A DNA stretch of 64,000 bases from Bdellovibrionota bacterium (GTDB taxonomy: Bacteria > Bdellovibrionota_C > UBA2361 > CAKMMH01): positions 2,205 to 66,204 of the forward strand of contig JAXFOK010000015.1 of NCBI GenBank assembly GCA_034180415.1, in the 5' to 3' direction. Positions within the stretch are counted from its first letter, which is position 1; every line of letters starts with the position of its first letter. The notes under the pieces are model-generated. The model was not told where the DNA came from, did not search any database, and saw nothing but the letters and a program-made list of their open reading frames with translations. The position numbers were made by a program, and so were the translations under genes. Positions 517 to 52,614 of this stretch are shown piece by piece.

Positions 517-520
517 TCGA

Positions 521-716
521 AAAAAGGCCGATACGCTAAAAAATACTGCGTTATTTTGAAAAAGGTTTCGCTCGCTGTACAACTTAGTACACCGTCGCTC
601 ACCTTTTTCAAAATGCCTTGTCTTTTTTGCGTCTCGGCCTTTTTTTATCTACAATACGCTAAAAAATACTTATGTTGTTTTAAAAAAAGTTTCGCTCGCT
701 GTATATTTCTTAAACG
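521..716. repeat. Family-A palindromic intergenic element: one full variant copy (521–647) plus a partial second copy (655–716)
   Basis: The termini aaaaaggccgatacgc ... gcgtctcggccttttt are inverted complements. Internal gtttcgctcgctgtac and caaaatgcctt modules are shared with the family-A copies at 4735, 21004 and 39357. The annotated ORF 556..747 lies wholly inside the repeat. Confidence 0.6.
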
Positions 717-3918: not shown

Positions 3919-4734
3919 TTGTATAAAGGATTTTTGTTTATGAATAAAAAAAATATTATAGAAAATAATAATGTCGATATAAAAAAAACAAATGAACCAC
4001 AATCAGAAATTGAAATAACATTTGTTGAAGATCCTTTATTTAGATTTTTTAAAAAATGGCAGAATGTTATTTTCTGGGGTCTTGTTGTTATAATTGCTTG
4101 CTATTTTGGTTATAATAAATATTCTGATATTAGAATAAATGAACAAAAAAGTGATGCAGATTTATTTGAAGAGTTTAGACCTATATACGCAAATATTATT
4201 ACCTTAAGTAAGGATATTAAGCAAAAAGAGTTAGAAATTCAAAAAGATACTAATGAGAAGAAAGATACTAAAGGAAAAGAAAAAGATTTAAATGAGCTAA
4301 AAGAACGTTTAACAAAATCATTAAGTGAGGCACAAAGTCGTATTAAGCCATTAGCTACAAGTAAATATTATAGCACTATTTCTAAGTTGTATTCTGCTTT
4401 ATTAAAGAAAAATGCAGGAGACCAAAAAGGTTTTGAAGAAGATATAAATAAAATAGATTTTAATAATTATAAAAATGAAAGTAATGAACAATCAAGATTT
4501 TACAAGGAGCTAGCGAGTATTATTATTGCAAAGGCCTACTTAGATGATGAAACGAAAATTTCAAATGCTAAAGAACTACTAACTAATTTAATAAAAGATG
4601 GTAAATATTTTAACGTGGTAGCTTTTAATACATTGTCAATAATTGCTAAAGGTGAGGAAGAAGAAGCGCTTAAGAAGTTAAAAGAAGAGTTGTTGAGTAA
4701 GGCTCCTGAACAATCTGAACTATTAAAAAATTAG
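3919..4734 (+). CDS. Membrane-anchored coiled-coil/TPR-like protein (possibly a YfgM-like translocon-associated protein)
   Basis: Single N-proximal transmembrane segment (VIFWGLVVIIACYFGY) followed by a charged helical region. The family assignment is tentative. Confidence 0.4.
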   Translation: MYKGFLFMNKKNIIENNNVDIKKTNEPQSEIEITFVEDPLFRFFKKWQNVIFWGLVVIIACYFGYNKYSDIRINEQKSDADLFEEFRPIYANIITLSKDIKQKELEIQKDTNEKKDTKGKEKDLNELKERLTKSLSEAQSRIKPLATSKYYSTISKLYSALLKKNAGDQKGFEEDINKIDFNNYKNESNEQSRFYKELASIIIAKAYLDDETKISNAKELLTNLIKDGKYFNVVAFNTLSIIAKGEEEEALKKLKEELLSKAPEQSELLKN

Positions 4735-4852
4735 TGATGTATCCAAGATTGCTTTGTTATATTAAGGGGGGGCAATGCTCATCGTAGCATGAGTACGCTT
4801 CCGATTGCCCCCCTTAAAATGCCACGCACTCTTGGCGTCTCACTAATTTTTT
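4735..4852. repeat. Family-A palindromic element (single copy) immediately after the stop codon of 3919..4734
   Basis: The 5' module gatgtatccaagattgc and 3' module aaatgccacgcactcttggcgtctcactaatttt match the family-A termini. The internal 14-bp inverted repeat is ttaagggggggcaat...attgccccccttaa. Confidence 0.65.
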
Positions 4853-4892
4853 AATCGCCAATGCATCTAAGATAACTATCAAAAGTTTATAT

Positions 4893-5080
4893 GGTCATTA
4901 CCCGAAGGGTAAACTAGAGCGAGCGTAAGCGAAGCGGCATAGGGCGTTACGTAGACACACGAATGTGTGGATGGCCAAGTAGACGAGCAATTTTGCGATA
5001 GTAAAATTGTGAAGGATACTTGGTTGTATGAGAATCACCATCAAAACAGCACCCCTTGCGGGTGCCCTAAGTAAAAAAAA
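4893..5080. ncRNA. GC-rich, highly structured intergenic element: candidate small RNA or structured repeat (strand undetermined)
   Basis: About 50% GC in a 30% GC genome. Perfect hairpins at ttacccgaagggtaa, cacacgaatgtgtg, ccaagta...tacttgg and gcaccccttgcgggtgc. No credible ORF: the 61-aa minus-strand ORF 4898..5083 is rejected. No RNase P, tmRNA or SRP signature motif. Confidence 0.3.
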
Positions 5081-5233
5081 CATAAACAGTATTTAGTACG
5101 ACGCATATAAGAGTTAGGGGGCTGATACTCGTTGCTACATCCCTGATTTAGCTCATTTTTCTTACCACTTATTGAAAATTATGCTTATCTTTTTTATAAT
5201 CTTTCTATTGTTTATAGGAGTTTAATTTTAGTC

Positions 5234-7924
5234 GTGACTACCGCATTTAACCTTAATTCATACAGTAATATTCCTCCGATGCTTGAGCAATATATAGAAT
5301 ATAAAAATGAGCATCCAGATTGCCTCATTTTTTGTCAAGTAGGTGATTTTTATGAATTATTCTTTGATGATGCGAAGGTCGTTGCAAAAACTTTAAATTT
5401 AACTTTAACTTCTAGAGATAAAAATTCTGAAAACCCAATCCCAATGTGTGGTGTGCCAATTGTCGTGATAGATGGATATATAGATAGACTCGTCGATCTT
5501 GGTTTCTCTGTAGCGATAGTTAGTCAAGCAGAGCTTGCCTCTGAAGCTAAAGGAATGGTTAAACGAAAACTAGAAAGAATTATAACACCAGCTGTTAGAC
5601 TTCTTGGAAGTGATAAATCAGAATCATCAATTGTTGCTTGCTTGTATTTTGATAACGAAAAAAATATTTCAATTGTTTTTTCAGATATCCAAAGCGCAAA
5701 ATTATATTATAGAGAAAATATTAATATAGAAAATTTAAAATCAGAACTTAGCCGAATTTCTCCAAAAGAAATAATTCTTCTTCAAAACTTAGGTGGTAAA
5801 AAGATCGACAGACGTGCTCTTTGGTTTAGAGATATAGAAAGAAACTTAAGCGACGCAGTTATAAAGATTAAACCAGAAACTTACATAAGCATTGATTTAA
5901 ATCCACTTAGAAAATTCGGAGATATAAAAGGTTACGCAAGCTTATCAAACGTTACTAAAAAAGCTACAAGATTGTTTTTTAACTATATTGATGAAGTAAC
6001 TGTAGAGAAAACATTACAAATTGAAGAAATAACAAAATGTAACTATGAAAGCATTATGGGGCTTGATGCAAGCGCTAGGATGAACTTAGAGCTTATTTCT
6101 AATCAAAAAGATGCAAGTAAAAAAAATACCCTTTTTGATTATATGGATATGACTGTAACAAAAGGGGGAGAAAAACTTTTAAGAAGTTGGATCTTAGCAC
6201 CTCTTTTAAATAAAGATGAAATATGTAAAAGACAAGATAGTGTAAAATTTTTACTAGATGAAGTTTCTATTCGTTATGAAATAAGAAATATTTTTAAATA
6301 TATATGTAATTTTTCTAAAATTGCATCAAGACTAGAAATGTCAATAGTTACACCAAGAGAACTAGGGGCGTTAAGAGATAGTTTAAGTGATATTCCAAAG
6401 ATCTTATTATTATTTAAAAATGATATTGATGAATTAGAAAATAAATTACCTGACAATTTAAAACGTATTCTAGAAAATTTAAATTATCCCAAAGAACTTT
6501 TAACACTTTTAAGGGATACACTTATTGAGAATCCAAGTAATTCTATAAATGAGGGAAATATAATAAGAGAAGGGTATGACGAAGAAGTTGATAGGCTTCG
6601 CTATGTAAGACAAAATGGGTGTTCTTGGATTTTAGACTTAGAAGCAAAAGAAAGAGAATTAAGTAAAATAAACTCACTTAAAATAAAGTTTAATAATGTT
6701 ATTGGTTATTTTATAGAAGTTACAAAAAGTAATGCAAATAAGGTTCCAAGTAATTATATTTTAAAGCAAAACACAACAAATACTACAAGATTTATTACAA
6801 GTGAATTAAAAGAACGAGAAAAAGAAGTTTTAGGTGCTGAAGCAAAGCTTTTCTCTTTAGAAAGAGATATCTTTTCAAAACTAAAAGATGACTTAATGAA
6901 GTATCTTCCGATCTTAAGAAGTCTTTCAGAAACTATATCACTTCTTGACCTTTACGCTTCTCTTTCTGAACTTGCAGAACAAGAAGCGTTAACTAGACCT
7001 CAAATAGTCGATGAAGAAATACTAGAAATTAAAGATGGCGTGCATCCAATTTTAAAAAGAGTATTAAAAAGTGATTTTATTCCAAATTCACTATCATTAT
7101 CTACTTTGCAAACTTTAGCTGTCCTTACAGGTCCTAATATGGGTGGAAAATCTACCTATTTAAGACAATGCGCACTTATTGTGATTATGGCGCAAATTGG
7201 AAGCTTTGTTCCTGCAAGAGAAGGAACAAAGATAGGAATTGTCGATAAAATTTTTGCCCGTCTTGGCGCATCTGATGATATGGAAGAAGGCGAGTCTACT
7301 TTTATGGTAGAAATGAGAGAAGCTTCTAATATTTTATCAAATGCTACAAATAGGTCTTTTGTCCTTATAGATGAAATAGGGAGGGGAACTGCGACCACTG
7401 ATGGTCTTTCAATTGCTGAGGCAATTTTAGAATACTTGCTTTTAAAAATAAAATGTCGAACGATATTTGCAACACATTTTCATGAGCTTACAGAGCTTGC
7501 TTACAAATATAAACAATTAAAAAATTTGTCGGTCGGTTCGATAGAGACAAGTGGTGAGGTCGTTTTTACTCATGAAATTGTTTCTGGGGCTGCAAAAAAA
7601 TCTTATGGTATCCATGTAGCAAAACTTGCAGGTATAAACAAAGGGATTTTAAATCGTGCTTCGCAAATATTAAATGATATGGAAAGAAAAAGTAATATAT
7701 CTTCAAATTCTCAGTTATCATTTTTTGAGCTTCAAGGGAATAATAATGAAAATATAACGGAATTATTTAAAGAAGATGAAAAGTTAGAGCTTCCTGAGGA
7801 TTATGATGCATTAAAAGAGCTTGCAAGAAATATAAAAAATGTAGATATTAATTCTATGACACCTTTAAACGCATTGGAGTTTTTAAATAATTTAAAAAAT
7901 AACGTAACTTTAATAAAAGAATAA
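5234..7924 (+). CDS. mutS: DNA mismatch repair protein MutS
   Basis: 896 aa. Walker A GPNMGGKSTYLRQ. Mismatch-binding N-terminal domain (FYELFFDDA). C-terminal HTH/dimerisation region. GTG start. Confidence 0.95.
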   Translation: MTTAFNLNSYSNIPPMLEQYIEYKNEHPDCLIFCQVGDFYELFFDDAKVVAKTLNLTLTSRDKNSENPIPMCGVPIVVIDGYIDRLVDLGFSVAIVSQAELASEAKGMVKRKLERIITPAVRLLGSDKSESSIVACLYFDNEKNISIVFSDIQSAKLYYRENINIENLKSELSRISPKEIILLQNLGGKKIDRRALWFRDIERNLSDAVIKIKPETYISIDLNPLRKFGDIKGYASLSNVTKKATRLFFNYIDEVTVEKTLQIEEITKCNYESIMGLDASARMNLELISNQKDASKKNTLFDYMDMTVTKGGEKLLRSWILAPLLNKDEICKRQDSVKFLLDEVSIRYEIRNIFKYICNFSKIASRLEMSIVTPRELGALRDSLSDIPKILLLFKNDIDELENKLPDNLKRILENLNYPKELLTLLRDTLIENPSNSINEGNIIREGYDEEVDRLRYVRQNGCSWILDLEAKERELSKINSLKIKFNNVIGYFIEVTKSNANKVPSNYILKQNTTNTTRFITSELKEREKEVLGAEAKLFSLERDIFSKLKDDLMKYLPILRSLSETISLLDLYASLSELAEQEALTRPQIVDEEILEIKDGVHPILKRVLKSDFIPNSLSLSTLQTLAVLTGPNMGGKSTYLRQCALIVIMAQIGSFVPAREGTKIGIVDKIFARLGASDDMEEGESTFMVEMREASNILSNATNRSFVLIDEIGRGTATTDGLSIAEAILEYLLLKIKCRTIFATHFHELTELAYKYKQLKNLSVGSIETSGEVVFTHEIVSGAAKKSYGIHVAKLAGINKGILNRASQILNDMERKSNISSNSQLSFFELQGNNNENITELFKEDEKLELPEDYDALKELARNIKNVDINSMTPLNALEFLNNLKNNVTLIKE

Positions 7925-18692: not shown

Positions 18693-21002
18693 ATGAAAAT
18701 GTTACAAAGAGAAAAATTATTTTTAAGTTGTGTTTTTAGTCTTGCATTTATTGTTTTAACAAATAATGGAAATGCATTGTTAATTGATGATTTTAAGGAT
18801 GTTGATAATAATGGAAATCCTCTTGGACTGCAATCAAGCGTAAATTCAACTAATAGTACAAGTTGGAATGATGTTGGGTTAGCAAATGTAGTGGGCGGTT
18901 GTCGTAAAGTTGTTTTGAGTGGAGATGGAAGTGGAGTTTTTTCAGCTGGAAAGTATTCTCACAACCAAGATGATGCAAAAACTGCAAAGTCAATAATAAC
19001 ATGGGGGGAATGTGAAGACGGTACAGTGATGTCTGAAGTAGATTTCACAAAAGATGGTTCTAAATATTTTGTAGTCAAGTATAATAGTAATGATAGCGTG
19101 GATTATAGAGGAAAAATATATTTAAGATTATGGGATAGCTCTGATCATGAAGCAAATGTTCAGTGTGATCGTTATGAATCCGAGGAAGTGTACAAATGTA
19201 TGTACAAAAAATATACAGATGTTGATGTCGAGCTAGATAAGATTGTAAAGATTCAGTTGATAATGGATGGTTCAAGTGCATCTGGTTGGGATTTCGGTAT
19301 TGAGTCAGTTTTGACTGGAAATAGCCAAAATACAGTTTGTGGTGTTGTTCCTACTGCATCAAATAATTATGGTGCTAAAGATGAATGTGGATTCTGTCCA
19401 AATGATATAATGCCTGATAAATATCAATATGGTCAAGGAAAAGATGAGTGTGATTATTGTCCAAATGATACTTTGCCTGCTAACTATCAATATGGTGATG
19501 GAAAAATTTGTCGTAATTCATGTGATGTAAATCAAAATTGCGGATGGTGTCCAACAATCGATAATCCAGGAAAAGCTCATCAGAGGTATACTTGTAAGCA
19601 ATGTGATGATGGAATGGATAATGACGGAAAGGGTGATATTGACTGTGCTGATCCTCAATGCTTAAAGGGGGTTAATGGAAGCTGTGATCCTAACTATAAT
19701 AGTGAAGCACCACAGTGTAGCAATAAGAAAGATGATGATAATGATGGTAAGGTAGATAAAAACGATCCAGCATGTCTTGATGAAAATGGCAATTATAACC
19801 CAGACCTTGATGATGAATCAGATGAACCTGCTTGTTCTGATAAAGCAGATAATGATGGTGATGGTTTGATTGATTCAAAAGATCCTGGTTGCTATGCGAA
19901 AAATCCAAATACTGGAAAATATGAATATAAGCCAAATAAAAAGAGTGAAGAAGGACCAAATACTGAATGTTCAGATTCAAAAGATAATGATGGTGATGGA
20001 TATATTGATAGTAAAGATCCTGATTGTTGGTATACTGATTCAATTAAGTTAGGTGGAACTAAAGACTATTCAAATGAATCACCTTTTTATGATTGGAATC
20101 CTTGGGATCTTTCAGAAAGTGGTGCAAGAAAGTATCAATGTTCAGATGGAAAGGATAATGATGATGATGGGTTAGTTGATGCGCAAGATCCTGGATGTTT
20201 AGATGATAGTGGTAATTGGAATCCTAAGAAAGATAGCGAAATTAATTCAGATGATGGAAAACCAGAATGTTCAGATGGTAAGGATAATGATAAAGATGGA
20301 TATATAGATTATCCTGATGATCCAGGTTGCACATCAAAGGATGATGATTCTGAAAATGACAACATTACAAAGCCTGAATGTTCTGATGGTATTGATAATG
20401 ATAAAGATGGAAAAATTGATGAAGCTGATACTTCATGTTGGGTTTATGATAATAATGGAAATCCAATTAAGTACGATCCTAATATCGATGATGAATCAGG
20501 ATGTACAACAACTTCTAATGTAAGTAACTTAGATGTTGATAATGAAAGATTAGCTACAATTGGTTTAAATGCTGCTTTATATTTAAAGAGATTCCATGCT
20601 AATTCAAGTAATGAATATAAGAGAACTACTCTTTCTGCAAAACGTGCTGGAACTAAGATTAGTAAGGAAATTAATAAGGTGGTGACAGATTTGAAATCTT
20701 ATTCAGTTTCTTGTAATAGTCAGACAGGTTCTTCATGTAGAAATAACAATAATACAGAGCTTAACAAGTTTTCACAACAAGTTAGTCAATTAAATAAACT
20801 TGTTCGTCGTGCACAAAGAAGAGGTTTGTTCTTTAAGAAGAATTTTGAAAGCAAGGCAATTTCAAAAGCTAAGCAACAAAAAGCAGGTTACAAAAATGCA
20901 AAAGCTACTATGACTAATAACAGAAAGGCTGGAACAAGAATAACTGTTTATAATAATATAAATGCCAAGGTTAGTAGTATTAAGTCATTAGCTATTTGCT
21001 AA
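18693..21002 (+). CDS. Secreted protein (769 aa) with tandem Cys-bounded Asp-rich calcium/metal-binding-type repeats (TSP3/MopE-like) and a basic Lys/Arg-rich C-terminal domain
   Basis: Signal peptide. CPND-containing units (CGFCPNDIMPDKYQYGQG, CDYCPNDTLPANYQYGDG). At least 7 units of C-S-D-x-K-D-N-D-x-D-G-x-(I/V)-D-x-x-D-P-x-C (e.g. CSDKADNDGDGLIDSKDPGC, CSDSKDNDGDGYIDSKDPDC). Basic tail rich in K/R/N/S. Confidence 0.8.
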   Translation: MKMLQREKLFLSCVFSLAFIVLTNNGNALLIDDFKDVDNNGNPLGLQSSVNSTNSTSWNDVGLANVVGGCRKVVLSGDGSGVFSAGKYSHNQDDAKTAKSIITWGECEDGTVMSEVDFTKDGSKYFVVKYNSNDSVDYRGKIYLRLWDSSDHEANVQCDRYESEEVYKCMYKKYTDVDVELDKIVKIQLIMDGSSASGWDFGIESVLTGNSQNTVCGVVPTASNNYGAKDECGFCPNDIMPDKYQYGQGKDECDYCPNDTLPANYQYGDGKICRNSCDVNQNCGWCPTIDNPGKAHQRYTCKQCDDGMDNDGKGDIDCADPQCLKGVNGSCDPNYNSEAPQCSNKKDDDNDGKVDKNDPACLDENGNYNPDLDDESDEPACSDKADNDGDGLIDSKDPGCYAKNPNTGKYEYKPNKKSEEGPNTECSDSKDNDGDGYIDSKDPDCWYTDSIKLGGTKDYSNESPFYDWNPWDLSESGARKYQCSDGKDNDDDGLVDAQDPGCLDDSGNWNPKKDSEINSDDGKPECSDGKDNDKDGYIDYPDDPGCTSKDDDSENDNITKPECSDGIDNDKDGKIDEADTSCWVYDNNGNPIKYDPNIDDESGCTTTSNVSNLDVDNERLATIGLNAALYLKRFHANSSNEYKRTTLSAKRAGTKISKEINKVVTDLKSYSVSCNSQTGSSCRNNNNTELNKFSQQVSQLNKLVRRAQRRGLFFKKNFESKAISKAKQQKAGYKNAKATMTNNRKAGTRITVYNNINAKVSSIKSLAIC

Positions 21003-21003
21003 T

Positions 21004-21388
21004 AAAATTGACGATGCATCCAAGATTGCGTCGTTATTCGAGAGAGATGCCGTCCTCGCTGTACTTAATAGTACAGCTGTGGGTGCATCCTCTCGAATGC
21101 CTAGCACTCTTGGCGCCTCGTCAATTTTATATATTAAGACGATGCATGTGATGATGCTACGTTCATTTTGAGGGATAAACGGTCCTTGCTGTACTTAATA
21201 GTACAGCTGTGGGAGCATCCTCCCGAATGCCTAGCACTCTTGGCGCCTCGTCAATTTTATATATTAAGACGATGCATGTGATGATGCTACGTTCATTTTG
21301 AGGGATAAACGGTCCTTGCTGTACTAATCGTACAGCTGTGGGAGCATCCTCTCGAATGCCTAGCACTCTTGGTGCCTCGTCAATTTTA
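21004..21388. repeat. Tandem array of three family-A palindromic elements (units about 121 nt)
   Basis: Copy 1 is 21004–21128. Copies 2 and 3 (21129–21249, 21250–21388) form a 121-nt direct repeat (atattaagacgatgcatgtgatgatgc...). Each has a central hairpin gctgtacttaatagtacagc and a 3' module gaatgcctagcactcttggcgcctcgtcaatttt. Termini are inverted complements. The ORF 21163..21408 is a repeat artefact. Confidence 0.8.
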
Positions 21389-21514
21389 TAAAATGGACCT
21401 TTTAACAACCCCTAAAAGGTAAAAGTTTTAATGGGTTGGTGCGTAATTAAAGTTTGCTGTGAAAAATTTCGATATTGAGTATAGGTTGGATTATATTTTT
21501 TTAAGTTTTAAGCT

Positions 21515-22762
21515 ATGAAATTATTAATTATTGATGTTTCAACAGAAGCTCAAGCAAAGTGTGCTAAAAAAATAGAGCCTTTTAATAGAAGTGATGTCGA
21601 AATGCTTGATTTAAAAATCAAGCTTGCAAACGAGCAAACTTATAAAGATATTCTAGAAGGAGCAGATGTTGCAATACTTGGTGCAGGGTTAGGTGAGTCT
21701 GCAATAGTGGTCGCAAGAGAGATTGCAAGCGTGTGCCCTTGGATGAATATTATAATGTTTGTTAAAGAGTCATTATACGGTGGAAGCTCTTTTAGAAGCG
21801 CACATTCAGTGGGCGTAAGAAAAGTTTTTTCTGATAACGCAAGTCCTCTTGATTTCTTGCAAGAACTTGTAGCAATTCACAGTGAATTTAGAAAAGAAGG
21901 TCGAGCCAGGGAAGGTATAGTTGTCGCGGTGAATCATGCCAAGGGAGGCGTCGGAGCAACTTCAATTTGCGCAGCTCTTGCAGAGGTTTGTGGAGTTTAT
22001 AATAAAAGGACACTTCTTTGGGATTTAGATGTCGAGACAAGAGATTTAAGTCGCTCTCTTACTGCAAGTGGAACAGAAGCCAAAGTAGTTTCATCGTGGG
22101 TTAATGGTTCAAGAGAAATTTCAAGAGAATCTTTAAAAGATGCACTTTTACCTATAAGTAATGAAGTTTCAATATTAATTCCACCAGATTGTATGGCTGA
22201 GTCTATGGATTTAGTGTGTCATACAGATAGTATAGCTCTTTGTAGTAGAATTTTAGAGCTTTCAAGAGTGCTTTTTGACGTAATTATTATTGATACTGGT
22301 GGAAGAATGGGACCTGCTACTGGAGCAGTAGTAAGAAATAGTGATAAAACTTTAATTGTTATTGATGATACGATTTTGGGACTAACAGCTGTCGATCTTT
22401 ATTTAAATTTTATTAAGAGTTTAGTTGGAACTCCAGATAGAATTAATTTTTTAATAAATCAATATACTGGAAATCTTCTTACAAAAAATCAGATTGAAGC
22501 TGAGTTAGAACCTATTCATAGGTTAGGACATGAGGTTTGGAGCTTAGATCCAGTGTATATGGACCCAAAAGCTAGCCTTTGGTCAGCAAGTGGTAAGACG
22601 CTTTATAGTTTAGGTAATAGAAATACAAGAGTTGCTCTAGAAAAGATGGCTGTAATTCTAGGACTTACTATTCAACATGGCGTAGTAAAGAGAGAAAACC
22701 AAGCAAATAATAACCAAAAAGAAAAAGGACATAAGTTTTTGAATTTTTTTAATAAAAAATAA
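21515..22762 (+). CDS. tadZ: TadZ/CpaE-type pilus-assembly ATPase (ParA/MinD-like, N-terminal degenerate receiver domain)
   Basis: N-terminal MKLLIIDVSTEAQAK REC-like fold. Deviant Walker A AVNHAKGGVGATSICAALA. 415 aa. Located at the head of the flp operon. Confidence 0.8.
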   Translation: MKLLIIDVSTEAQAKCAKKIEPFNRSDVEMLDLKIKLANEQTYKDILEGADVAILGAGLGESAIVVAREIASVCPWMNIIMFVKESLYGGSSFRSAHSVGVRKVFSDNASPLDFLQELVAIHSEFRKEGRAREGIVVAVNHAKGGVGATSICAALAEVCGVYNKRTLLWDLDVETRDLSRSLTASGTEAKVVSSWVNGSREISRESLKDALLPISNEVSILIPPDCMAESMDLVCHTDSIALCSRILELSRVLFDVIIIDTGGRMGPATGAVVRNSDKTLIVIDDTILGLTAVDLYLNFIKSLVGTPDRINFLINQYTGNLLTKNQIEAELEPIHRLGHEVWSLDPVYMDPKASLWSASGKTLYSLGNRNTRVALEKMAVILGLTIQHGVVKRENQANNNQKEKGHKFLNFFNKK

Positions 22763-22935
22763 TGTTTGTTATTTTTGTTAATATTTGAATCTTTTTTTAA
22801 AAAAAAGAATCTTAATACTTAAATATATGAGGTTTGTATTTGCTGATTTTTTAGTTTTAGTTTAAGTTGTAGTTATAAATAGCTATATTTGTAAACTAAA
22901 AATTTAAATAATATATATATTAAGGAGAAAGTAAA

Positions 22936-23109
22936 ATGTTAAGAATTTTTAGTAAGAAAGAAAAAGGTGCTTCACTCGTTGAGTACGCGTTACTAGTTGC
23001 TTTAATTGCATTAGGATCAATGGCTGCTATGAGATTACTATCAAATAATATTTCAGGTGCATTCTCTCAATCAGGTAGTATATTACAAGATGTAAGTAAA
23101 GCAGGTTAA
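22936..23109 (+). CDS. flp: Flp-family pilin precursor (57 aa), absent from the supplied ORF track
   Basis: MLRIFSKKEKGASLVEYALLVALIALGSMAAMRLLSNNISGAFSQSGSILQDVSKAG carries the Flp signature (G/ASLVEYALLVALIAL: prepilin-peptidase site G|A, conserved E and Y). Strong RBS aaggagaaagtaaaATG. Sits directly upstream of cpaB/tadA/tadB/tadC. Confidence 0.8.
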   Translation: MLRIFSKKEKGASLVEYALLVALIALGSMAAMRLLSNNISGAFSQSGSILQDVSKAG

Positions 23110-23127
23110 TTTATTAAGTATTTTATT

Positions 23128-24039
23128 ATGAAGCCACTTAGTTCTCAACCAGATAGTAATTCTAAGCTAATTTTTTTAGTTGCAATTGTTGTAATGCTTT
23201 TGCTAGGTGGCTTTCTTTTAATTTTTTTCGGATTTAGTAATAAATCTAATAATACCGGACAAAATTTTGATAATCCACAAAGTGAATTGAATGATAATAT
23301 AAATACTAGAGCAGAAAATAATGCAAATGTTGAAAGAACAGTTCAGGTTTTAGTTACAATAAGAGATATTAAAAATGGCGAAAAATTAGATCCTACAATG
23401 TTTAGGAAAGAAACAAGGCCAGAAAATTTTGTTAAACCTGATGATTATAGAGATTTTTCACAGATAGATGGTTTTTTTGCAAAATCAGATATTGGATTTA
23501 GAGAAACTATAGACCCAAATAAAGTATCAAGAAAAAAACCAGTAAATACTATAACGGCTAATATTCCTGAAGGTTACAGAGCTGTTACAATTAATGTTGA
23601 TGTGACAAGTAGTGTAGAAGGTTGGGCAAGAGCAGGAGCGTTTGTTGATGTTGTATGGAATTCAGTGATAAATGGAAAACCAGCTGCTACTGTAATTATT
23701 CAAAATGCAAAAATTTTATCAGCAGAAAGGCAAATTGAGGCTAATCCACAAGAGGGACAGGCTCCTGTTCCTAGTACTGTAACACTTCTTGTGCTTGCGG
23801 ATGATGCAACAAAAATTCATCTTGCAGAAACCACTGGTAAGTTAAGTTTACAGTTAAGAGGGGACGATGCTGAAAAAGGATTTGGGGCAAGAACTTCCCT
23901 TACAATAGATGATTTACTTGATAAGAATAATGGTAAAAAAGATAATAAAAAGTATGATGCTATTGTAAAAATTAAAGGTAAAAATGGTAAAATGGAAAGG
24001 TGGGGATTAAAGGATGGAAGTCTTGTTCTAATTGAGTAA
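23128..24039 (+). CDS. cpaB: CpaB/RcpC-family Flp pilus assembly protein
   Basis: N-terminal TM anchor, then a SAF-like region (VQVLVTIRDIKNGEKLDPTMFRKETRPENFVKPD) and a beta-rich C-terminus, at the canonical position between flp and tadA. Confidence 0.65.
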   Translation: MKPLSSQPDSNSKLIFLVAIVVMLLLGGFLLIFFGFSNKSNNTGQNFDNPQSELNDNINTRAENNANVERTVQVLVTIRDIKNGEKLDPTMFRKETRPENFVKPDDYRDFSQIDGFFAKSDIGFRETIDPNKVSRKKPVNTITANIPEGYRAVTINVDVTSSVEGWARAGAFVDVVWNSVINGKPAATVIIQNAKILSAERQIEANPQEGQAPVPSTVTLLVLADDATKIHLAETTGKLSLQLRGDDAEKGFGARTSLTIDDLLDKNNGKKDNKKYDAIVKIKGKNGKMERWGLKDGSLVLIE

Positions 24040-24057
24040 TTTTAAAAGAAGTTATAA

Positions 24058-25515
24058 ATGGCAAGAAATGAGACTAATGATGATTTAACAAGTTTGTTTT
24101 CTACAAGAAATAAGATGATAAATGAATCATCGCAAGGGGAGAATAATTCGTTAATGCCATCTGTATCTGGTGGAACTTCTTCTCGAGGTATTGCAAAAAC
24201 TAATAAAAATGATTCAAAAGATTATTCTCAAGGAAATGATAGTTTTAAAAAGGAACTTTCAGAGACAGGTAATAGGGTATTAAAAGAAGCAAGAAGTGAG
24301 CTAGGGGAACTTTTAAACAAACAAAAAGAATCTAACAAAGCTATTGATGAGTCAACGATTATTAAAGCTGTAGAAAAGGTTATTGAAAAAAATGAAGTTT
24401 CACTTCCTGACTTAGAAAAGGCTACTATTATTATTCATCTTCAAAAGGATTTGCTTGGTTGGGGAGTTTTACAGCCTCTTATAGATAATCCAGAAGTTAC
24501 AGATATTCACGTTTATGATTATGCTACAGTCGTGCTTCAACGTGGTAAAGTTAGTGAAAGAACTCAGTATCGATGGCCATCCAAACAAGTTTATATAGCA
24601 TTTATTGATAGGCTTCTTTTAAGACTTGGAAAATCACTATCTACTCAGCAACACACGGTTGATGCTGCGCTTCCAAATGGAATAAGAATTTGTGCAATTC
24701 ACGAGAGTGTTTGTGGTTCAAGAGGCCCACTTTTAAGTATTCGTGTACCAAGAGTTAGTAAAGTATCACTTGAAAGTATCGTATCATACCAAATGGCACC
24801 ACCATTAATTGTTAGGTATTTAGCAGCACTTGTAAAATGTGGTATTTGTACATTTATGATAGCAGGAGAAACTGGTACTGGTAAAACGACTATTATGAAA
24901 TGTCTTGCAACTCAATTTGGTGAAACTGAGTCAATCGTAGCTGTTGAAGATACTCCAGAACTTAATTTACAACATGAGTATTTTAGATCCCTTGTATCTC
25001 GTCCACCAAACACCGAGGGAAAAGGTGAAGTTACACTTCAAGAGCATATAAAAACTACTCTTCGTATGACACCAAACAGGGTACTACTTGGTGAAATGAG
25101 AACTCCATTTGCTGCAGAAGCTTTCTTAGAAGGTGTCCAAACAGGTCACGTTGGAATGAGTACAATTCACGCTCGTAATGCTAGAGAAACTCTTACAAGA
25201 CTTGAAGGACTTTTAGGACGTGCTCAACAGTCAGTTTCTACTGAGATTTTAAGGCAGCAAATCGCGCTTGCTGTAGATGTTGTTGTTTGGCTTTTTAGAG
25301 AAAAAGAAACGGGAAAACCAAGAGTAGGGGAAATAATTGAAGTTGGACACTGTGTTGAAGGTGTAATTCAAACGCGTCCTATGTTTTCAATTTTAAAAAC
25401 AGGAAAGGATCCTCTTTGGAGAGTCGACTCTTGGGCAAGTTTCTTTGATGAAGAGCTAGCAGAATACGGAATATTTCTAGGAGATGCGCCTCCTGAGATT
25501 AGTTTAAAAGACTAG
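24058..25515 (+). CDS. tadA: TadA/CpaF pilus-assembly ATPase (T2SS/T4SS secretion ATPase superfamily)
   Basis: Walker A IAGETGTGKTTIMKCL, Asp box, Walker B and His box (GHVGMSTIHA). The N-terminal about 140-aa extension is unusually long. Locally higher GC is typical of a conserved ATPase. Confidence 0.9.
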   Translation: MARNETNDDLTSLFSTRNKMINESSQGENNSLMPSVSGGTSSRGIAKTNKNDSKDYSQGNDSFKKELSETGNRVLKEARSELGELLNKQKESNKAIDESTIIKAVEKVIEKNEVSLPDLEKATIIIHLQKDLLGWGVLQPLIDNPEVTDIHVYDYATVVLQRGKVSERTQYRWPSKQVYIAFIDRLLLRLGKSLSTQQHTVDAALPNGIRICAIHESVCGSRGPLLSIRVPRVSKVSLESIVSYQMAPPLIVRYLAALVKCGICTFMIAGETGTGKTTIMKCLATQFGETESIVAVEDTPELNLQHEYFRSLVSRPPNTEGKGEVTLQEHIKTTLRMTPNRVLLGEMRTPFAAEAFLEGVQTGHVGMSTIHARNARETLTRLEGLLGRAQQSVSTEILRQQIALAVDVVVWLFREKETGKPRVGEIIEVGHCVEGVIQTRPMFSILKTGKDPLWRVDSWASFFDEELAEYGIFLGDAPPEISLKD

Positions 25516-25555
25516 CATAATATATATGTTTTTTAAAAAAAGGTTTTAAGAAAAA

Positions 25556-26485
25556 GTGTCTATTGAGGTTATACTAGGAATAATATTAATTCTTTTGTCA
25601 ATAATTGTCGCTTGTGTGCTATTATTGTCTAATAATAATTCTAGTCATTCAAATTTTAAAAGTTTAAGTTCTCAAAAGAATAACAATGATAATAATTTAG
25701 AAGATATTGATTTTGTAAAAGTAGAAAGAACTAGCAATGGAAAATATACTTTAAGACAAAAAATGATATATGCAAATTGGAAATTTCCTCCAATCCTATT
25801 TAATATGTTTAGGTTTTCATTAGCAATTTTATGCTTTATGATAGCAAAGACCTATTTTAAGATTTTTTTATCTACTATTATTGCCTTTTTAGCTTTTAAC
25901 TTTGCAAATGGTTTTTTAAACAGGGCAATAAAGAAAAGATTCGATGCGTTTGATAAAGACTATCCAACATTTTTACAAACAATAGTAAGTTTATTAAAAT
26001 CTGGTATGAATGTACTTACTGCTATAGATTCAGCATCTGAGGGGCTAGAAGATACGTCACTTTTAAAAAGTGAAGTTAAGGTCATGATGGAAAGATTAAG
26101 AGCAGGAGTCGGTGAAGAAAAAGCTATTGGAAATTTTGGAGCAACAATTGATCATCCAGAAATTGAATTATTTATCCAAACTATAATTTTAGGAAAAAGC
26201 CTAGGTGGTTCTTTATCTATGACCCTTGATAGGCTTGCAGAACAAGTAAGAAAAAGACAATATTTTAGAGGCTCAGCAGTTGCTTCTATAGCACAGCAAA
26301 AAGGATCTTTATGGGTTATTTTATATTTATTATCAGGTTTAATTATTACAATTGGATGTAAAGCTCCAGATTTATTTGCTGTTGGATTGCATAGCAATGG
26401 TGGTAGAATGGTCTTGGAAATAGGAATATGTATTATATTGCTTGGAATATTTTGGATTAAGAAAGTTATAAATATTAAGGTATAA
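25556..26485 (+). CDS. tadB: TadB (GspF-like inner-membrane platform protein)
   Basis: T2SSF domain (PTFLQTIVSLLKSGMNVLTAIDSASEGL ... IQTIILGKSLGGSLSMTLDRLAEQVRKR) with flanking TM helices. GTG start. Confidence 0.75.
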   Translation: MSIEVILGIILILLSIIVACVLLLSNNNSSHSNFKSLSSQKNNNDNNLEDIDFVKVERTSNGKYTLRQKMIYANWKFPPILFNMFRFSLAILCFMIAKTYFKIFLSTIIAFLAFNFANGFLNRAIKKRFDAFDKDYPTFLQTIVSLLKSGMNVLTAIDSASEGLEDTSLLKSEVKVMMERLRAGVGEEKAIGNFGATIDHPEIELFIQTIILGKSLGGSLSMTLDRLAEQVRKRQYFRGSAVASIAQQKGSLWVILYLLSGLIITIGCKAPDLFAVGLHSNGGRMVLEIGICIILLGIFWIKKVINIKV

Positions 26486-27346
26486 ATGAATTTATTAATT
26501 GGTTTTATCATAATTTTTGCGATTATAACTTTTGTGTTATTTGTAGTAATTGTTTATTCGAATAAGAAAAATCAAGAAAAATCTACTCCTAAATATTTAT
26601 CAAATTCTTCTAAAAAAAATGTAGCAAAAAATAATACTAAATCAAAGAATGGTAAAGATGAAAGTTTAGAATCACTTTTTTATAGAGCTGGAATCTTTGA
26701 TGAAAAAGACAAGGCGGCTTTTAATAGGAAAAAAGTGCTTTATCCATTAATTTTTGGAATTATAGGAGCCATATTAGGGATTTATTATGGAGGATATTCA
26801 CTTTTTCTAATGCCTACCTTAGGTGCATATCTTGGTTTAAAATTTCCAGGAAGAATACTAAATAAAAGAATAAAAGAAAGAGATGAAGATATCTTATACT
26901 ATTTACCACTTGTAATAGAGCAATTAGTTGTAGGAGTAAGTAGCGCACTTGATATAGGCCCATGTATAGCTTATGTCGTCGATATGGCAGAAAAAAGAGG
27001 AACACATAATCCTGTCACAATTCTTTTAAAACAAGTACAAATTTTAGTTAGATTTGGTGCATCATTAGATGACGCACTTGTAGATGTTGGTAAGCAATCA
27101 GGTCATAATGAACTTAAAAATAGCTTTTTACAACTTTCACAGGTTACAAAGCATGGTGGTGAAATTACGAAACAATTACAAGATCTTGGAACAACAGTTA
27201 CAAGACAACGTGAGATTATAATTGATGAACGTATAAAAAGATTGGAATTAAAAGCAACAGGCCCTGTATTTTTAGTATTTGCCGGCCATATGGCTATATT
27301 ATTAGCATTCTTATTTATGGGGCTAGCAAAATCTCTTAGTAATTAA
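26486..27346 (+). CDS. tadC: TadC (second GspF-like platform protein)
   Basis: T2SSF-like region (ILYYLPLVIEQLVVGVSSALDIGPCIAYVVDMAEK ... QVQILVRFGASLDDALVDVG) plus TM helices. The start abuts the tadB stop. Confidence 0.75.
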   Translation: MNLLIGFIIIFAIITFVLFVVIVYSNKKNQEKSTPKYLSNSSKKNVAKNNTKSKNGKDESLESLFYRAGIFDEKDKAAFNRKKVLYPLIFGIIGAILGIYYGGYSLFLMPTLGAYLGLKFPGRILNKRIKERDEDILYYLPLVIEQLVVGVSSALDIGPCIAYVVDMAEKRGTHNPVTILLKQVQILVRFGASLDDALVDVGKQSGHNELKNSFLQLSQVTKHGGEITKQLQDLGTTVTRQREIIIDERIKRLELKATGPVFLVFAGHMAILLAFLFMGLAKSLSN

Positions 27347-37115: not shown

Positions 37116-39356
37116 ATGGTTACTAAAAGATTACGATTAGCTGTTTGGTGGGAAAGGCTTGAGATGCCTTTAAAACTAGCACTTTTTGTGCTTGGAGCTT
37201 CGCTTTTAGCATTAGTTATCTATTGGCAAAAACCTCGGTTTGAAATTGAGAATTTTGGAAGTAATTTAACTTTTTTTATCCTTATTAATTTAAATATTGC
37301 ACTTCTTTTTGTTTTTGTTTTTCTAGTAGCAAGAAATATCGTTAAACTTATTTTTGAACGAAAACAAAATATACTAGGTTCAAAGTTAAAAGAAAAATTA
37401 ATTTTTGCATTTGGTGGTTTAACTCTTGTTCCTACAATTATCATTTTTATTCTTTCTAGCACAATGCTTAGTCATTCAATGGAAGAAATTTTTTCGAAAA
37501 ATATTTTGGAAGCTATTACTGGGGCTAATGAACTTGCACAAAATTACTACGGGAGTGTTGAGAAGGATTATGAAAGTTTAGGAAGTGAGATAGAAAAAGA
37601 AATAGGAAAAGAAATTAATAATCTAAATATTAATAATCCTGAAAATAAAAAGGAAATTCTTAAAGGTTATTTTTCTTCAGTAATTCAAGATGAGAATGTG
37701 TTTGATGTAACATTAGTTGATGATAAAGATAATGTTGTAGCCGATTTTACAAAGCAAAATATAAAGAGCAAATATAAACTTAGTCTAGATGGCGAGTCAA
37801 TAAAAGAAATAATTAAAAAACATGTTTCTAGGTCTATTGTAGAGGAAGTCGGTAAAGACCAGGTGATGAGGATTTATTATCCAATAAGAATTAATAATGA
37901 ATATTATGCTCTGGTTTTAACAGGTATTATCGATAAAAGTATGAATGAATCTTTACTTCAAGTAGAAGATGCATATAAAGATTACGAAAATTTATTGTTT
38001 CACAAAAATCCTGTTCGTTCAAGTTATTTGTTGACGCTTGCTATGATGACAATGCTTATTTTATTTGCCGCAATTTGGGTAGCATTTTATATCGCAAAAG
38101 AAATTACTGTACCAATTGAAAAGCTTGCAAATGCAACAAAACAAGTAGCTCATGGTGATTATGATTGCGTTATTAAAACTGTTGGAAGTGATGAGATTTC
38201 TTATTTAAGTCGTTCATTTAATATGATGCTTTCTGATTTAAAGCAATCAAAAAATGAAACCGAACGTCATCGTCTTTTTATGGAAACTGTACTTTCAAAC
38301 CTTGCAGTAGGTGTTATTACTCTTAATAAAGATAGAAAGCTTATTGCTGTAAATACCGCAGCATCTGACATTTTAAATCTAACAGCCGGGGAGCATAATG
38401 GGAGTAAATCATTGTATGATATTTTTGATAAACAAATAGCAGATAAACTTATAAGCTTACTAAATAATTCCTCTTTAATATTAGATGAATTTAGTTCAGG
38501 TATGACAGACACTGAGTTTACTATAAGATCTGAAGGGCGTGAATATCAAATAGTTTGCACAGCCGGCGTTATAGTTGATAGCACGGGAGATACTTTAGGA
38601 AGCGTTCTTATATTTGATGATGTAACGGACTTATCGCATGCACAAAAAATGGCTGCATGGCGAGAAGTCGCAAGAAGAATCGCTCATGAAATAAAAAATC
38701 CATTAACTCCTATTAGGCTATCTGCTCAGCGTATTCAACGAGATGCAAAGCTTAATAATCTTCCGTCGTTATATAATGAGTCAAGTTCAATGATTGTAGA
38801 GCAAGTAGATATCATTAAAAGATTAATTGATGAGTTCTCAAATTTCGCAAGAATGCCGACATCATCTTTTGAAAAAGTAGATATTGTTGCTTTCTTAAAA
38901 GATATTATTCAATCATTTTCTGAAAATAATGAAGATATTGAATTTAATGCTGATATAGAAGAAGATGCATTAGAAACATCTGTAGATATTGGGCAAATGA
39001 GACTTGTCCTCCTTAACTTATTTGAAAATGCAATGCAAGCCTTAAGGAATGCGAAAATAGAAGACCCTAAAATTAATGTTAAACTTTCTTATTTAAAAAA
39101 GATTAAATCTTTTTCAATTGAAATTGCAGATAATGGCCCTGGAATTTCTGATATTGATAAAACAAGAATTTTTGAACCTTATTATACGACAAAAGAAACA
39201 GGAACAGGACTTGGACTTGCAATCGTTACTTCAGTTATTTCTGACCATCGAGGGCGAATTAGAATATTTGACAACAAGCCAAGAGGCGCGAAATTTATTA
39301 TTACACTTCCGCTTTCGCAAGGCGATGCTAGGGCTAAGACTCAACGTTTCAATTAA
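37116..39356 (+). CDS. Membrane sensor histidine kinase (NtrY-like: TM region, HAMP, PAS, HisKA, HATPase_c), no cognate regulator adjacent
   Basis: Multiple N-terminal TM helices. HAMP (...VPIEKLANATKQVAHGDYD...). The PAS-like segment has no strong signature and is inferred from the HAMP–HisKA spacing. H-box RIAHEIKNPLTPI. G-boxes DNGPGISD and GTGLGLAIV. Confidence 0.85.
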   Translation: MVTKRLRLAVWWERLEMPLKLALFVLGASLLALVIYWQKPRFEIENFGSNLTFFILINLNIALLFVFVFLVARNIVKLIFERKQNILGSKLKEKLIFAFGGLTLVPTIIIFILSSTMLSHSMEEIFSKNILEAITGANELAQNYYGSVEKDYESLGSEIEKEIGKEINNLNINNPENKKEILKGYFSSVIQDENVFDVTLVDDKDNVVADFTKQNIKSKYKLSLDGESIKEIIKKHVSRSIVEEVGKDQVMRIYYPIRINNEYYALVLTGIIDKSMNESLLQVEDAYKDYENLLFHKNPVRSSYLLTLAMMTMLILFAAIWVAFYIAKEITVPIEKLANATKQVAHGDYDCVIKTVGSDEISYLSRSFNMMLSDLKQSKNETERHRLFMETVLSNLAVGVITLNKDRKLIAVNTAASDILNLTAGEHNGSKSLYDIFDKQIADKLISLLNNSSLILDEFSSGMTDTEFTIRSEGREYQIVCTAGVIVDSTGDTLGSVLIFDDVTDLSHAQKMAAWREVARRIAHEIKNPLTPIRLSAQRIQRDAKLNNLPSLYNESSSMIVEQVDIIKRLIDEFSNFARMPTSSFEKVDIVAFLKDIIQSFSENNEDIEFNADIEEDALETSVDIGQMRLVLLNLFENAMQALRNAKIEDPKINVKLSYLKKIKSFSIEIADNGPGISDIDKTRIFEPYYTTKETGTGLGLAIVTSVISDHRGRIRIFDNKPRGAKFIITLPLSQGDARAKTQRFN

Positions 39357-39730
39357 AAAATTGGCGATGCATCGCGAAGATTGTTGCGTTATTTGAATGT
39401 AAGTCTTGCTAGCTGTACAAAAGTACAGCGTCGCTTCGAGTTCATTCAAATGCCTTGCACTCTTCGCGCCTCGCCAATTTTTTATAGGCAAAGAGAAGAG
39501 AAAGATTTTGGCGATGCATCGCGAAGATTGCTGCGTTATTTGAATGTAAGTCTTGCTAGCTGTACAAAAGTACAGCGTCGCTTCGAGTTCACTTAAATGC
39601 CTTGCACTCTTCGCGCCTCGCCAATTTTTTATAGGCAAAGAGAAGAGAAAGATTTTAGCGATGCATCGCGAAGATCGCTGGTTATTTGAATTTAACTCTT
39701 GCTAGCTGTACAAAAGTACTGCTACATACC
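39357..39730. repeat. Tandem array of family-A palindromic elements (two full units of about 149 nt plus a truncated third)
   Basis: Each unit is aaaattggcgatgcatcgcgaagattg ... gctgtacaaaagtacagcg ... caaatgccttgcactcttcgcgcctcgccaatttttt, separated by the spacer ggcaaagagaagagaaagatt. The termini are inverted complements. ORFs 39231..39638 and 39381..39596 are repeat artefacts. Confidence 0.8.
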
Positions 39731-39848
39731 TGACCCGTAAGGGTAATGGTACCTGCAGGTCTAAATTTTTGCACAAAATGTGATTTGATTCGAGAAATTA
39801 TGGGATATTTGCGATTTGATTCTGAATCGTAAGAATTTTAAGGAAAAA

Positions 39849-40018
39849 CCCCGTTAGAGGTTTATTAGAGCATGCGTTAGCATGCGGCGCTAGGGCAGAA
39901 TGTAGATGAACGAAGTGAGGCTGCCGGTGTAGACTCGGGAATGTTCGCGTTAGCGACATTCACGAGGATACTCCGGTGTGTGTAATAACCTCATAAATTC
40001 CGCCCACGTAGGGGGCGA
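39849..40018. ncRNA. GC-rich structured intergenic segment: candidate small RNA or decayed element
   Basis: About 50% GC. Hairpins at gcatgcgttagcatgc, gaatgttcgcgttagcgacattc (about 10-bp stem) and cgcccacgtagggggcg. No ORF. Flanked by a family-B module at 40014..40052. Confidence 0.25.
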
Positions 40019-40052
40019 CTAAAACTTTGCATCAGTGTTTCCTTAAAATTAC
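40014..40052. repeat. Family-B module (ggcgactaaaactttgcatcagtgtttcctta)
   Basis: Near-identical to the 3' module of the element at 14798..14870. Confidence 0.55.
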
Positions 40053-40079
40053 TTTTTTGTTCGATGGGGAAAAAATGTT

Positions 40080-40160
40080 CACTTTATTTTCTGGTCTTAG
40101 GGTTCAGATATTAGGGTTTCAGACGTTTCGAATCAGGTTTCGTGTAACAGGTTAAAAGCT
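40080..40160. repeat. Family-C element downstream of the minus-strand HD-domain gene
   Basis: ggtcttagggttcagatattagggtttcagacgtttcgaatcaggtttcgtgtaacaggtt. Repeated GGTTTCAG-type motifs. Confidence 0.45.
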
Positions 40161-40163
40161 TTA

Positions 40164-41221: not shown

Positions 41222-41320
41222 GAAGCTTAAAAAAATAACAAGACGCAAAAAAGGCGAGGCATTTGAGGGGGACCAACCGGAGGCGTGCTTTTGTACGTTG
41301 AGGATTGGTCCTCTTTGGAA
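41222..41320. repeat. Family-E element, truncated copy (5' half)
   Basis: gcttaaaaaaataacaagacgcaaaaaaggcgaggcatttgagggggaccaaccggaggcgtgcttttgtacgttgaggattggtcctc matches 41458.. over about 95 nt. ORFs 41084..41326 and 41448..41642 are repeat artefacts. Confidence 0.7.
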
Positions 41321-41457
41321 AAACAAAAATAAAGTTTTAGGTATTAAATATGGTTGAAGAATATGTTAAAAGTGTATGCTTGATTCCGGAAAAAGGATGA
41401 GGCACCGGCAATGATAGGCATTTTCATAAAAAGCGAGAGAAAGAGGGATGATTTATA

Positions 41458-41600
41458 AGAAGCTTAAAAAAATAACAAGACGCAAAAAAGGCGAGGCATT
41501 TGAGGGGGACCAACCGGAGGCGTACTTTTGTACGTCGAGGATTGGTCCTCCCTCAAATAACGAAGCATTTTTTGATGTATTGTTATTTTTTTTAAGCTTG
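41458..41600. repeat. Family-E palindromic element, complete copy (about 140 nt)
   Basis: Outer inverted repeat gcttaaaaaaataacaa ... ttgttattttttttaagc. Inner inverted repeats gcatttgagggggaccaa ... ttggtcctccctcaaata and ggaggcgtacttttgtacgtcgagg. It abuts the stop of the minus-strand gene 41592..42149. Its aaaaaaggcgaggcatttga module is the reverse complement of the family-A 3' module with the central part deleted. Confidence 0.7.
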
Positions 41601-52605: not shown

Positions 52606-52614
52606 GCATATAAA

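Follow-up and report, generated by a model that had tools for sequence, protein, structure and literature searches.

The SPRITE elements of the pneumococcus have AAAA/TTTT ends, are terminator-like and are enriched at the 3' ends of coding sequences, strongly so between convergent genes (PMC3049150). No transposase is known for them, no target duplication can be demonstrated, and co-option as terminators has been proposed (PMC3049150). In Yersinia, ERIC elements have an orientation- and ribosome-dependent effect on mRNA (reviewed in PMC2229807). The stretch of DNA analysed here, referred to as the window, comprises 64,000 nucleotides (nt) of a Bdellovibrionota bacterium (contig JAXFOK010000015.1, positions 2,205 to 66,204). 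It contains three head-to-tail palindromic units between the stop codon of a repeat protein gene and a tad pilus operon. This arrangement had been described in an earlier reading of the sequence (the original prediction), and Tandem Repeats Finder, nhmmer and a covariance model agree on it. A family of ~130-nt interspersed hairpin repeats, restricted to one lineage and previously undescribed, has expanded locally to give the triplet. The family is best read as a terminator-like RNA hairpin repeat of transcript 3' ends, probably analogous but not homologous to SPRITE, ERIC and REP. We give this reading a probability of roughly 0.55.

SPRITE is the closest analogue of the hairpin family. Both are small interspersed repeats that have AAAA/TTTT ends and a long stem with a U-rich tract behind it, and each is restricted to one species group. 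SPRITE has an 18-bp duplex and a G+C content below that of its genome, whereas the hairpin family has 47 pairs, conserved loops, a conserved tip and a G+C content above that of its genome. The two share no sequence relationship and their hosts are unrelated (SPRITE was set apart by its published description). Unlike SPRITE, the hairpin family abuts the stop codon itself and builds head-to-tail arrays.

The units also resemble ERIC (IRU) elements, which are imperfect palindromes of ~127 nt that form RNA hairpins and are co-transcribed with flanking genes. In 2005, De Gregorio and colleagues reportedly found that ERIC copies at or overlapping stop codons favour one orientation. ERIC occurs in both orientations and at varied distances from genes, with TA duplicated, whereas the hairpin family has a single orientation at the stop codon and no evident duplication. 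The units have no sequence similarity to ERIC by blastn (word 11) against 5,426 complete E. coli genomes, where the unit has no match. The REP, BIME and REPIN elements are likewise extragenic palindromes at gene 3' ends; they stabilise upstream mRNA and form mosaic arrays of variable copy number. REPs are 20-40 nt long with a conserved GTAG, and BIMEs and REPINs alternate, in contrast to the 130-nt units, which are arranged head to tail. Pfam finds no Y1/RAYT gene in the 64-kb window, and the family does not fit within this group. BOX (pneumococcus) and Correia/NEMIS (Neisseria) are similar in being modular hairpin repeats that are co-transcribed with genes, contain variable internal modules (boxB) and affect mRNA processing. 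They differ from the hairpin family in architecture and sequence, and they are bound neither to stop codons nor to one orientation.

The triplet, locus A, extends from 21003 to 21392. Its units are 130, 130 and 129 nt long, so that the period is 130/129 nt and not the ~121 nt first proposed. The unit limits by nhmmer and the covariance model are 21002/3-21133, 21134-21263 and 21264-21392:

21003..21133, plus strand: unit 1, intact, with A-run, 47-pair interrupted stem, tip hairpin (21058-21077) and T-run
21134..21263, plus strand: unit 2, a hybrid of a divergent left arm L' (TTAAGACGATGCATGTGATGATGCTACGTTCATTTTGAGGGATAAACGG) with the tip and right arm of unit 1
21264..21392, plus strand: unit 3, a hybrid resembling unit 2, with the tip loop TAATC and a single G-to-T change in the conserved GCG

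Tandem Repeats Finder reports 2.6 copies of a 130-nt period from 21052 to 21390 (96% matches, score 636). This repeat opens at the tip (21052) and not at the left arm. The array therefore consists of a unique left arm followed by 2.6 x [tip + right arm + L'].

Unit 1 has an RNA folding free energy (dG) of -67.6 kcal/mol (z -10.0), and its covariance model score is 141.8 bits in the sense direction and 57.4 in the antisense direction. The values for unit 2 (-44.9 kcal/mol, z -4.0, 61.6 bits) and unit 3 (-44.2 kcal/mol, z -4.5, 59.1 bits) are weaker, and their foreign left arm L' pairs poorly with the shared right arm. In the predicted folds, the full stem, closed by the unit's own termini, is found in unit 1 alone. 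The original prediction had assigned such a stem to every unit, which is correct for unit 1 and incorrect for units 2 and 3. It had also placed a central hairpin in each copy. This hairpin (in unit 1, GCTGTAC at 21058-21064, the loop TTAATA and GTACAGC at 21071-21077) is present in units 1 and 2, and unit 3 has the loop TAATC instead. Unit 3 has one mismatch to the 3' motif of the family.

Five loci with 8 full and 4 partial units are found in the 64 kb of the window by nhmmer and the covariance model. The family 3' motif AATGCCNNGNNNTNTTNGCGYCTNNNNNWTTTT occurs nine times in the window, against 0.00 expected. A repeat family had been proposed from the triplet, on the understanding that a lack of other copies would speak against it. 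Four further loci in the window, together with units in related metagenomic contigs, bear the proposal out. The four loci are:

519..705, plus strand: locus D, an intact unit (519-649) 3 nt past the TAA (514-516) of a porin gene, then a left-arm fragment (650-705)
4725..4880, plus strand: locus C, an intact unit (4725-4855) holding the TAG (4732-4734) of a TPR_21 gene, then a 25-nt left-arm fragment
39355..39723, plus strand: locus B, intact units at 39355-39486 and 39502-39633, then a third unit (B3) truncated at or after its tip, ending at 39723
41226..41592, minus strand: locus E, an intact unit (41592-41463), then a second right half (41351-41226)

The intact units of loci D, C and E have similar folding energies (-53.5, -53.4 and -53.5 kcal/mol, with z -10.7, -8.5 and -8.7) and covariance model scores of 118.4, 119.1 and 138.2 bits, respectively. 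The fragment of locus D (unit D2) breaks off at the tip hairpin. An NtrY-like histidine kinase gene ends in the TAA (39354-39356) at which locus B starts. The units of this locus are separated by a linker of 15-18 nt that is itself repeated, and Tandem Repeats Finder reports 2.4 copies of a 147-nt period (39361-39719). An RNA methyltransferase gene (41592-42149, minus strand) precedes locus E, and the intact unit begins at its stop codon. Here a tandem period of 237 bp (41210-41564, minus strand) is made up of a spacer, a degenerate right-arm fragment (AAAATGCCTATCATTGCCGGTGCCTCATCCTTTTT) and the right half-unit. Across the loci, unit G+C content is 40-48%, compared with 29.9% for the window, and copies at different loci are only ~60-65% identical. 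The flanks of the window (~9.6 kb upstream and 9.4 kb downstream) contain no further unit, which gives a density of roughly 5 loci per 83 kb.

Each unit is laid out as an A-run, a G+C clamp, an interrupted stem of 47 pairs, a tip with GTAC on both sides, the complementary clamp and a T-run. The interruptions are small conserved mismatches and bulges, including one invariant U.G pair. A4-8 and T4-7 bracket every unit. Intact units have folding energies of -53 to -68 kcal/mol, with z of -7.6 to -10.7. RNAalifold recovers the 47 pairs, and compensatory double changes are present at 27/47 of them. Across 14 distinct sequences, 98.2% of cells are paired, compared with 82.6% in shuffled sequences and 41-49% with slid partners; the number of covarying pairs is 27, against 6-8 with slid partners. 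The clamps vary between copies and are complementary in every variant (TTGACGA/TCGTCAA, TTGGCGA/TCGCCAA, GGCCGA/TCGGCC, TTAGTGA/TCACTAA, TAACAA/TTGTTA and TTGATGA/TCATCAA). The internal loops are asymmetric and conserved, with GATGCAT ... TTGCnnCGTTAT on the 5' side and AAATGCCnnGC ... GCGyCT on the 3' side. Because pairing is retained at ~60-65% identity and the pairs covary, the structure and its asymmetric loops are under selection. Conservation of structure and loops does not in itself distinguish folding as RNA from folding as single-stranded DNA. The family is directional, scoring 118-142 bits in the sense direction and 44-57 bits in the antisense direction on the covariance model.

Eight loci are independent, and in each of them the unit has the same orientation as the upstream open reading frame (ORF) and starts between -24 and +3 nt from its stop codon. 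The distance is 0 at loci A, B and E and in the metagenomic contig L006. It is +3 nt at locus D and +2 nt at the DUF5658 gene of the metagenomic contigs L003 and L042. At locus C the TAG is inside the element, and at the transketolase gene of L003 and L042 the stop is 24 nt inside the element. Under random orientation, the chance of 8/8 co-orientation is (1/2)^8, or ~0.004, and abutment of the stop codon by chance is far less likely still. Locus A begins directly 3' of the TAA (21000-21002) of ORF 18693-21002, and in the fold of unit 1 the first paired base (21002) is inside this TAA. L003 and L042 each contain a pair of convergent genes, 200-300 nt apart, in which both genes have a co-oriented unit of their own. 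Orientation is thus not set by replication, and the arrangement argues against a simple bidirectional terminator shared by the two genes. The element can supply the last codon or codons and the stop of the upstream gene. The TPR_21 protein, whose stop (4732-4734) is within the element that starts at 4725, ends ...LLKN*, and its orthologue in L008, which has no repeat, is one codon shorter (...LLK*). Likewise, the transketolase end encoded by the element (L003 1639-1662; L042 11949-11974) is ...IVEKLMMHSK*, compared with ...IVSDIQKAFAI* in L043, which has no element. Few repeat families are so tightly tied to gene ends, with 8/8 in one orientation, hairpins whose foot is on the stop codon, and convergent genes that have their own copies.

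Intact units have the sequence features of an intrinsic terminator, namely a stem followed by T4-7, placed at or overlapping a co-oriented stop (0-3 nt). Co-orientation, stop abutment and the terminator-like order of A-run, stem and T-run favour a role at the 3' end of transcripts. An ordinary bidirectional intrinsic terminator of the same genome is found at 52548-52606 (plus strand; A7-GCACGAAAA ... TTTTCGTGC-T9), between convergent Fic and pyruvate:ferredoxin oxidoreductase genes. Its weak score (22.9 bits) on the repeat covariance model reflects the A-run/stem/T-run design common to both. Under the terminator-like reading, transcription of the upstream gene would extend into each unit, which would make up the very 3' end of the mRNA. 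The transcript would fold into a rod-like hairpin of ~47 pairs, with a foot (A-run, G+C clamp and U-run) like that of the genome's bidirectional intrinsic terminators. RNA polymerase would stop at the U-run, and the long stem would shield the 3' end from exonucleases. A ribosome terminating at the stop codon, which the foot overlaps or abuts, would have to melt the lower stem, and folding of the first unit would thereby be coupled to translation. The extra downstream units of locus A may act as ribosome-free back-ups that insulate the tad operon from read-through. Copy-number differences upstream of this operon could then modulate read-through into a colonisation locus. The family would also offer a natural system for the encounter of a long 3' hairpin with a terminating ribosome or RNA polymerase, and for the route by which elements reach stop codons.

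Several points weigh against a terminator-like role. The stem is ~5x longer than that of a normal terminator. The symmetry of A-run and T-run leads one to expect termination in both directions, so termination alone leaves the strict orientation unexplained. The conserved asymmetric loops point to recognition by some protein outside the model, and tolerance or selection alone does not obviously account for a start within 3 nt of the stop. Variable pairs in the seven intact units include 10 G-U and 3 A-C, which is a weak strand signal, and there is no consistent difference between sense and antisense folding energies. Strain assemblies with a single unit at locus A could be products of short-read collapse, as several scaffolds are N-gapped inside the array.

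Searches with MutS and transketolase assign the window to an uncultured Bdellovibrionota/Oligoflexia-like lineage. Proteins identical to those of the window recur in the metagenome-assembled genome (MAG) GCA_028724725.1 and in numerous gut metagenome assemblies, from pig, poultry and other sources. Genome, metagenome and viral contigs were scanned in one pass each with a 33-nt family motif. This motif is absent from 185,579 species-representative genomes, two chance matches aside, and from the IMG/VR viral contigs. In the JGI metagenomes, the motif scan finds true members only in L003 and L006, and four other matches across the scans are due to chance. L042 also contains true units by the covariance model. 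Two related metagenomic lineages carry the family. The unit has no match to plasmids and phages by blastn. The whole window has 0 matches in Rfam 15 at the gathering score, and a permissive E-value returns only chance-level scores of 15-18 bits in 20900-21550, 39300-41650 and 4700-5250. The 74 kb examined from relatives with 67-83% protein identity (L008, L010, L011 and L043) contain no unit. L008 has unrelated sequence after the orthologous porin stop. In L043 two stop codons are 26 nt apart, whereas the same site in L042 contains ~440 nt of repeats. The relatives without units and the empty site in L043 point to acquisition or expansion of the family within a narrow lineage, and the family is restricted to one lineage. 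This is the first interspersed repeat family described for uncultured gut Bdellovibrionota, and its covariance model is available for use.

A possible but unlikely alternative is a purely selfish, non-autonomous mobile element (a MITE or a REPIN-like single-strand hairpin element). A transposase acting in trans (for example, RAYT or an IS200/IS605-type HUH enzyme) would recognise the conserved hairpin and the asymmetric loops. The units would serve the host in no way, and would be found at gene ends because the element prefers such targets and is tolerated there. The single-lineage occurrence, with sites filled in L042 and L003 and empty in L043, is consistent with this explanation, as is the G+C content of the units (40-48%, compared with 30% for the genome). 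The entire unit is an inverted repeat with A-run and T-run ends, as in SPRITE. Its termini, an A-run with a 6-7 nt clamp and their complement, are terminal inverted repeats as in a MITE, and the conserved mismatches and bulges resemble the extrahelical bases of hairpin-recognising recombinases. However, Pfam finds no transposase, RAYT or integrase in the 64-kb window, and the IS110-family element that interrupts a unit in L006 shares no ends with the unit. Inspection of the window loci reveals no clear target-site duplication. A TAA...TAA reading is possible at locus A, the other loci have no consistent direct repeat, and the empty sites of L043 and L008 are too diverged at the junctions. Pairing of 98% at ~60-65% identity argues for long-term structural selection and not for recent bursts of transposition. 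Transposons that move as single strands are oriented with replication, but the convergent genes each have a co-oriented unit. Finally, within the species every locus is occupied in all strains, and only copy number differs.

Assembled copy number differs among strains at four loci:

Locus A in strain contigs: one unit in L013, L014 and L021; two units in L015-L017; three units in the window
Locus A, N-gapped arrays: L012, L019 and L020
Locus B in strain contigs: one or two full units ahead of the partial unit
Locus D in strain contigs: L-R-L'(partial) or L-R-L'-R-L'(partial)
Locus E in strain contigs: one, two or three copies of the 237-bp period (0, 1 or 2 extra)

At all four loci, the extra copies are blocks of [right arm + next left arm]. 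This fits unequal recombination or slippage and not new insertions. Repeated insertion probably did not build the array at locus A; two neighbouring units are more likely to have recombined unequally, or slipped, within the tip and right arm that they share. This would leave a single intact unit and a set of hybrids whose number varies by strain assembly. The original prediction had listed terminators, mRNA stabilisers, protein-binding sites and recombination hot spots as possible functions. This list is too generic. A recombination hot spot is retained as a side property, given the copy-number variation and the tip truncations, and the list as a whole is narrowed without any entry being proven. 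Runs of N are present inside the repeat arrays of public scaffolds of the species (L012, L019, L020, L022, L037 and L040), and many contigs end there. The gaps and contig ends indicate that the family breaks short-read assemblies and that copy numbers from MAGs are unreliable. The family accounts for the breaks and N gaps of the species' assemblies at repeat sites.

The units could act as a translation-linked regulator and not as a terminator, which we consider quite unlikely. In such a regulator, the hairpin would delay or stall terminating ribosomes, expose or hide an RNase site, and so tune upstream mRNA or protein levels. At 8/8 loci the stop is within the foot of the stem or directly next to it, the element itself supplies the last codons and stop in TPR_21 and in the L003/L042 transketolase, and the strict orientation suggests an asymmetric RNA feature. 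The B-oriented ERIC copies of Yersinia provide a precedent (PMC2229807). No RNase site or stalling signal is identified in the units, and the genes concerned (porin, TPR, repeat protein, histidine kinase, RNA methyltransferase and transketolase) have no obvious common regulatory need. A ribosome-linked effect has been proposed for E. coli REPs within ~15 nt of stop codons.

A stop-codon-homing mobile terminator is a further, more speculative reading, and its chances are slim. The conserved loops and the GTAC tip would form the surface recognised by a dedicated protein, and the element would spread specifically, and in one orientation, to the last codons or stops of ORFs. Termination of transcription or of translation might provide the route, for example by insertion into the exposed non-template strand or through an RNA intermediate. 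If true, stop-codon homing would be a targeting principle undescribed for any bacterial repeat.

In L006 (JAEEGL010107198.1), an IS110-family element (234-1835, transposase ORF 357-1442) is inserted exactly after the 3'-side GTAC of a unit tip. In the window, unit B3 is truncated at the same point (39716-39730; GTAC[A/T]GC followed by TACATACC...), and both insert ends open with TACATA. The L006 insertion and the B3 break at one point make the tip a hot spot for insertion or breakage, and suggest that it may be a target for IS110-type insertion. REP elements are targets of IS110/IS1111-family insertion.

The L006 insertion and the B3 break, together with the break of unit D2 in its tip and the assembled copy-number variation at four loci, count in favour of a site that acts at the DNA level. 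It could be an attC-like or IS-target recombination or landing site, or a site for a nucleoid protein, with the arrays as by-products of recombination. The units resemble attC sites (for example, the 120-126-nt Vibrio cholerae repeats) in size, in being structure-conserved imperfect palindromes and in their conserved unpaired bases. Like attC sites, they directly follow an ORF, often overlap its stop and have a fixed orientation. An integron attC was rejected, and a DNA-level site in general is improbable. Unlike attC sites, the units are repeated with no ORF between them, and they lack the core sites (RYYYAAC ... GTTRRRY) on inspection of their sequences. No integrase is found nearby or elsewhere in the window, and the flanking genes are not cassettes but housekeeping genes, syntenic with those of repeat-free relatives. 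Targeting by insertion sequences explains the damage to units, but neither their origin nor their placement at stop codons.

Independent small genes, either trans-acting small RNAs or type I toxin-antitoxin loci with a short hydrophobic peptide (MP.TL.AS.IF...), are highly improbable: a conserved ATGCC in the right arm opens short hydrophobic frames in most units, and tandem duplication is common among such loci, but there is no Shine-Dalgarno sequence and no space for a promoter between stop codon and unit, the frames differ in length and in where they stop (one unit has GTG for ATG, and two frames end after 11-12 codons), the seeming conservation of the peptide is that of nucleotides which pair with the left arm, and the translated units have no match among 5.8 billion predicted proteins. 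A small toxic peptide or small ORF was rejected on the same grounds of non-conserved frames and missing ribosome-binding site. A CRISPR array, which the original prediction had correctly set aside, was rejected because the units abut without spacers and the linker of locus B is itself repeated.

A second, unrelated structured repeat, named Y here, is G+C-rich and ~190 nt long. Copies are present in the window at 4885-5082 and 39836-40030, with a weak copy at 63442-63578 (all plus strand). The first two follow truncated units and the third follows the clpB stop. Further copies are found in L018 (about 5602-5880) and L042 (21376-21538, minus strand). In strain L018, Y is inserted right behind unit 1 of locus A and is flanked by repeated CCTCGTCAATTTTATAA. 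Y contains several hairpins, GNRA-like loops and a recurring GTAGA(C) ... CGAA ... GGATAC motif, with RNA folding energies of -64 and -68 kcal/mol (z -5.2 and -3.3). Y matches nothing in Rfam and is not similar to the ends of the IS110-family element of L006. Y could be a non-coding RNA or the end of a mobile element.

Further genes of the window are as follows:

890: ATG start of a HIT gene
18693..21002, plus strand: upstream ORF of locus A from the ORF list, a Cys/Asp-rich repeat protein of 769 aa whose TAA stop is the foot of the first hairpin
21515..27346, plus strand: tad/flp pilus operon, with TadZ/CpaE-like, Flp, RcpC, TadA and TadB/C genes

The 769-aa repeat protein is not recognised by Pfam beyond a weak match to DUF5780, and the label "adhesin-like" in the original prediction is tentative. 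Its coding repeats (19377-20440, plus strand) include a 63-bp tandem pair at 19377-19505. They contain four to five copies of a module of ~64-72 nt with C-x-D-x-x-D-N-D-x-D-G-x-x-D-like calcium-binding motifs. The operon downstream is a tad operon, as had been proposed. The gene at 21515 encodes a TadZ/CpaE-like ATPase (Pfam AAA_31/CbiA), and precomputed Pfam matches of identical genes in strain contigs identify the later genes (Flp_Fap, RcpC, T2SSE and T2SSF). The end of locus A is 122 nt from the ATG (21515) of the TadZ/CpaE-like gene. Just past the array, a short A+T-rich hairpin is present at 21397-21420 (plus strand; ACCTTTTA-ACAACCCC-TAAAAGGT, then AAAAGTTTT). It is kept in all strains regardless of unit count, and is possibly the ancestral 3' end of locus A.

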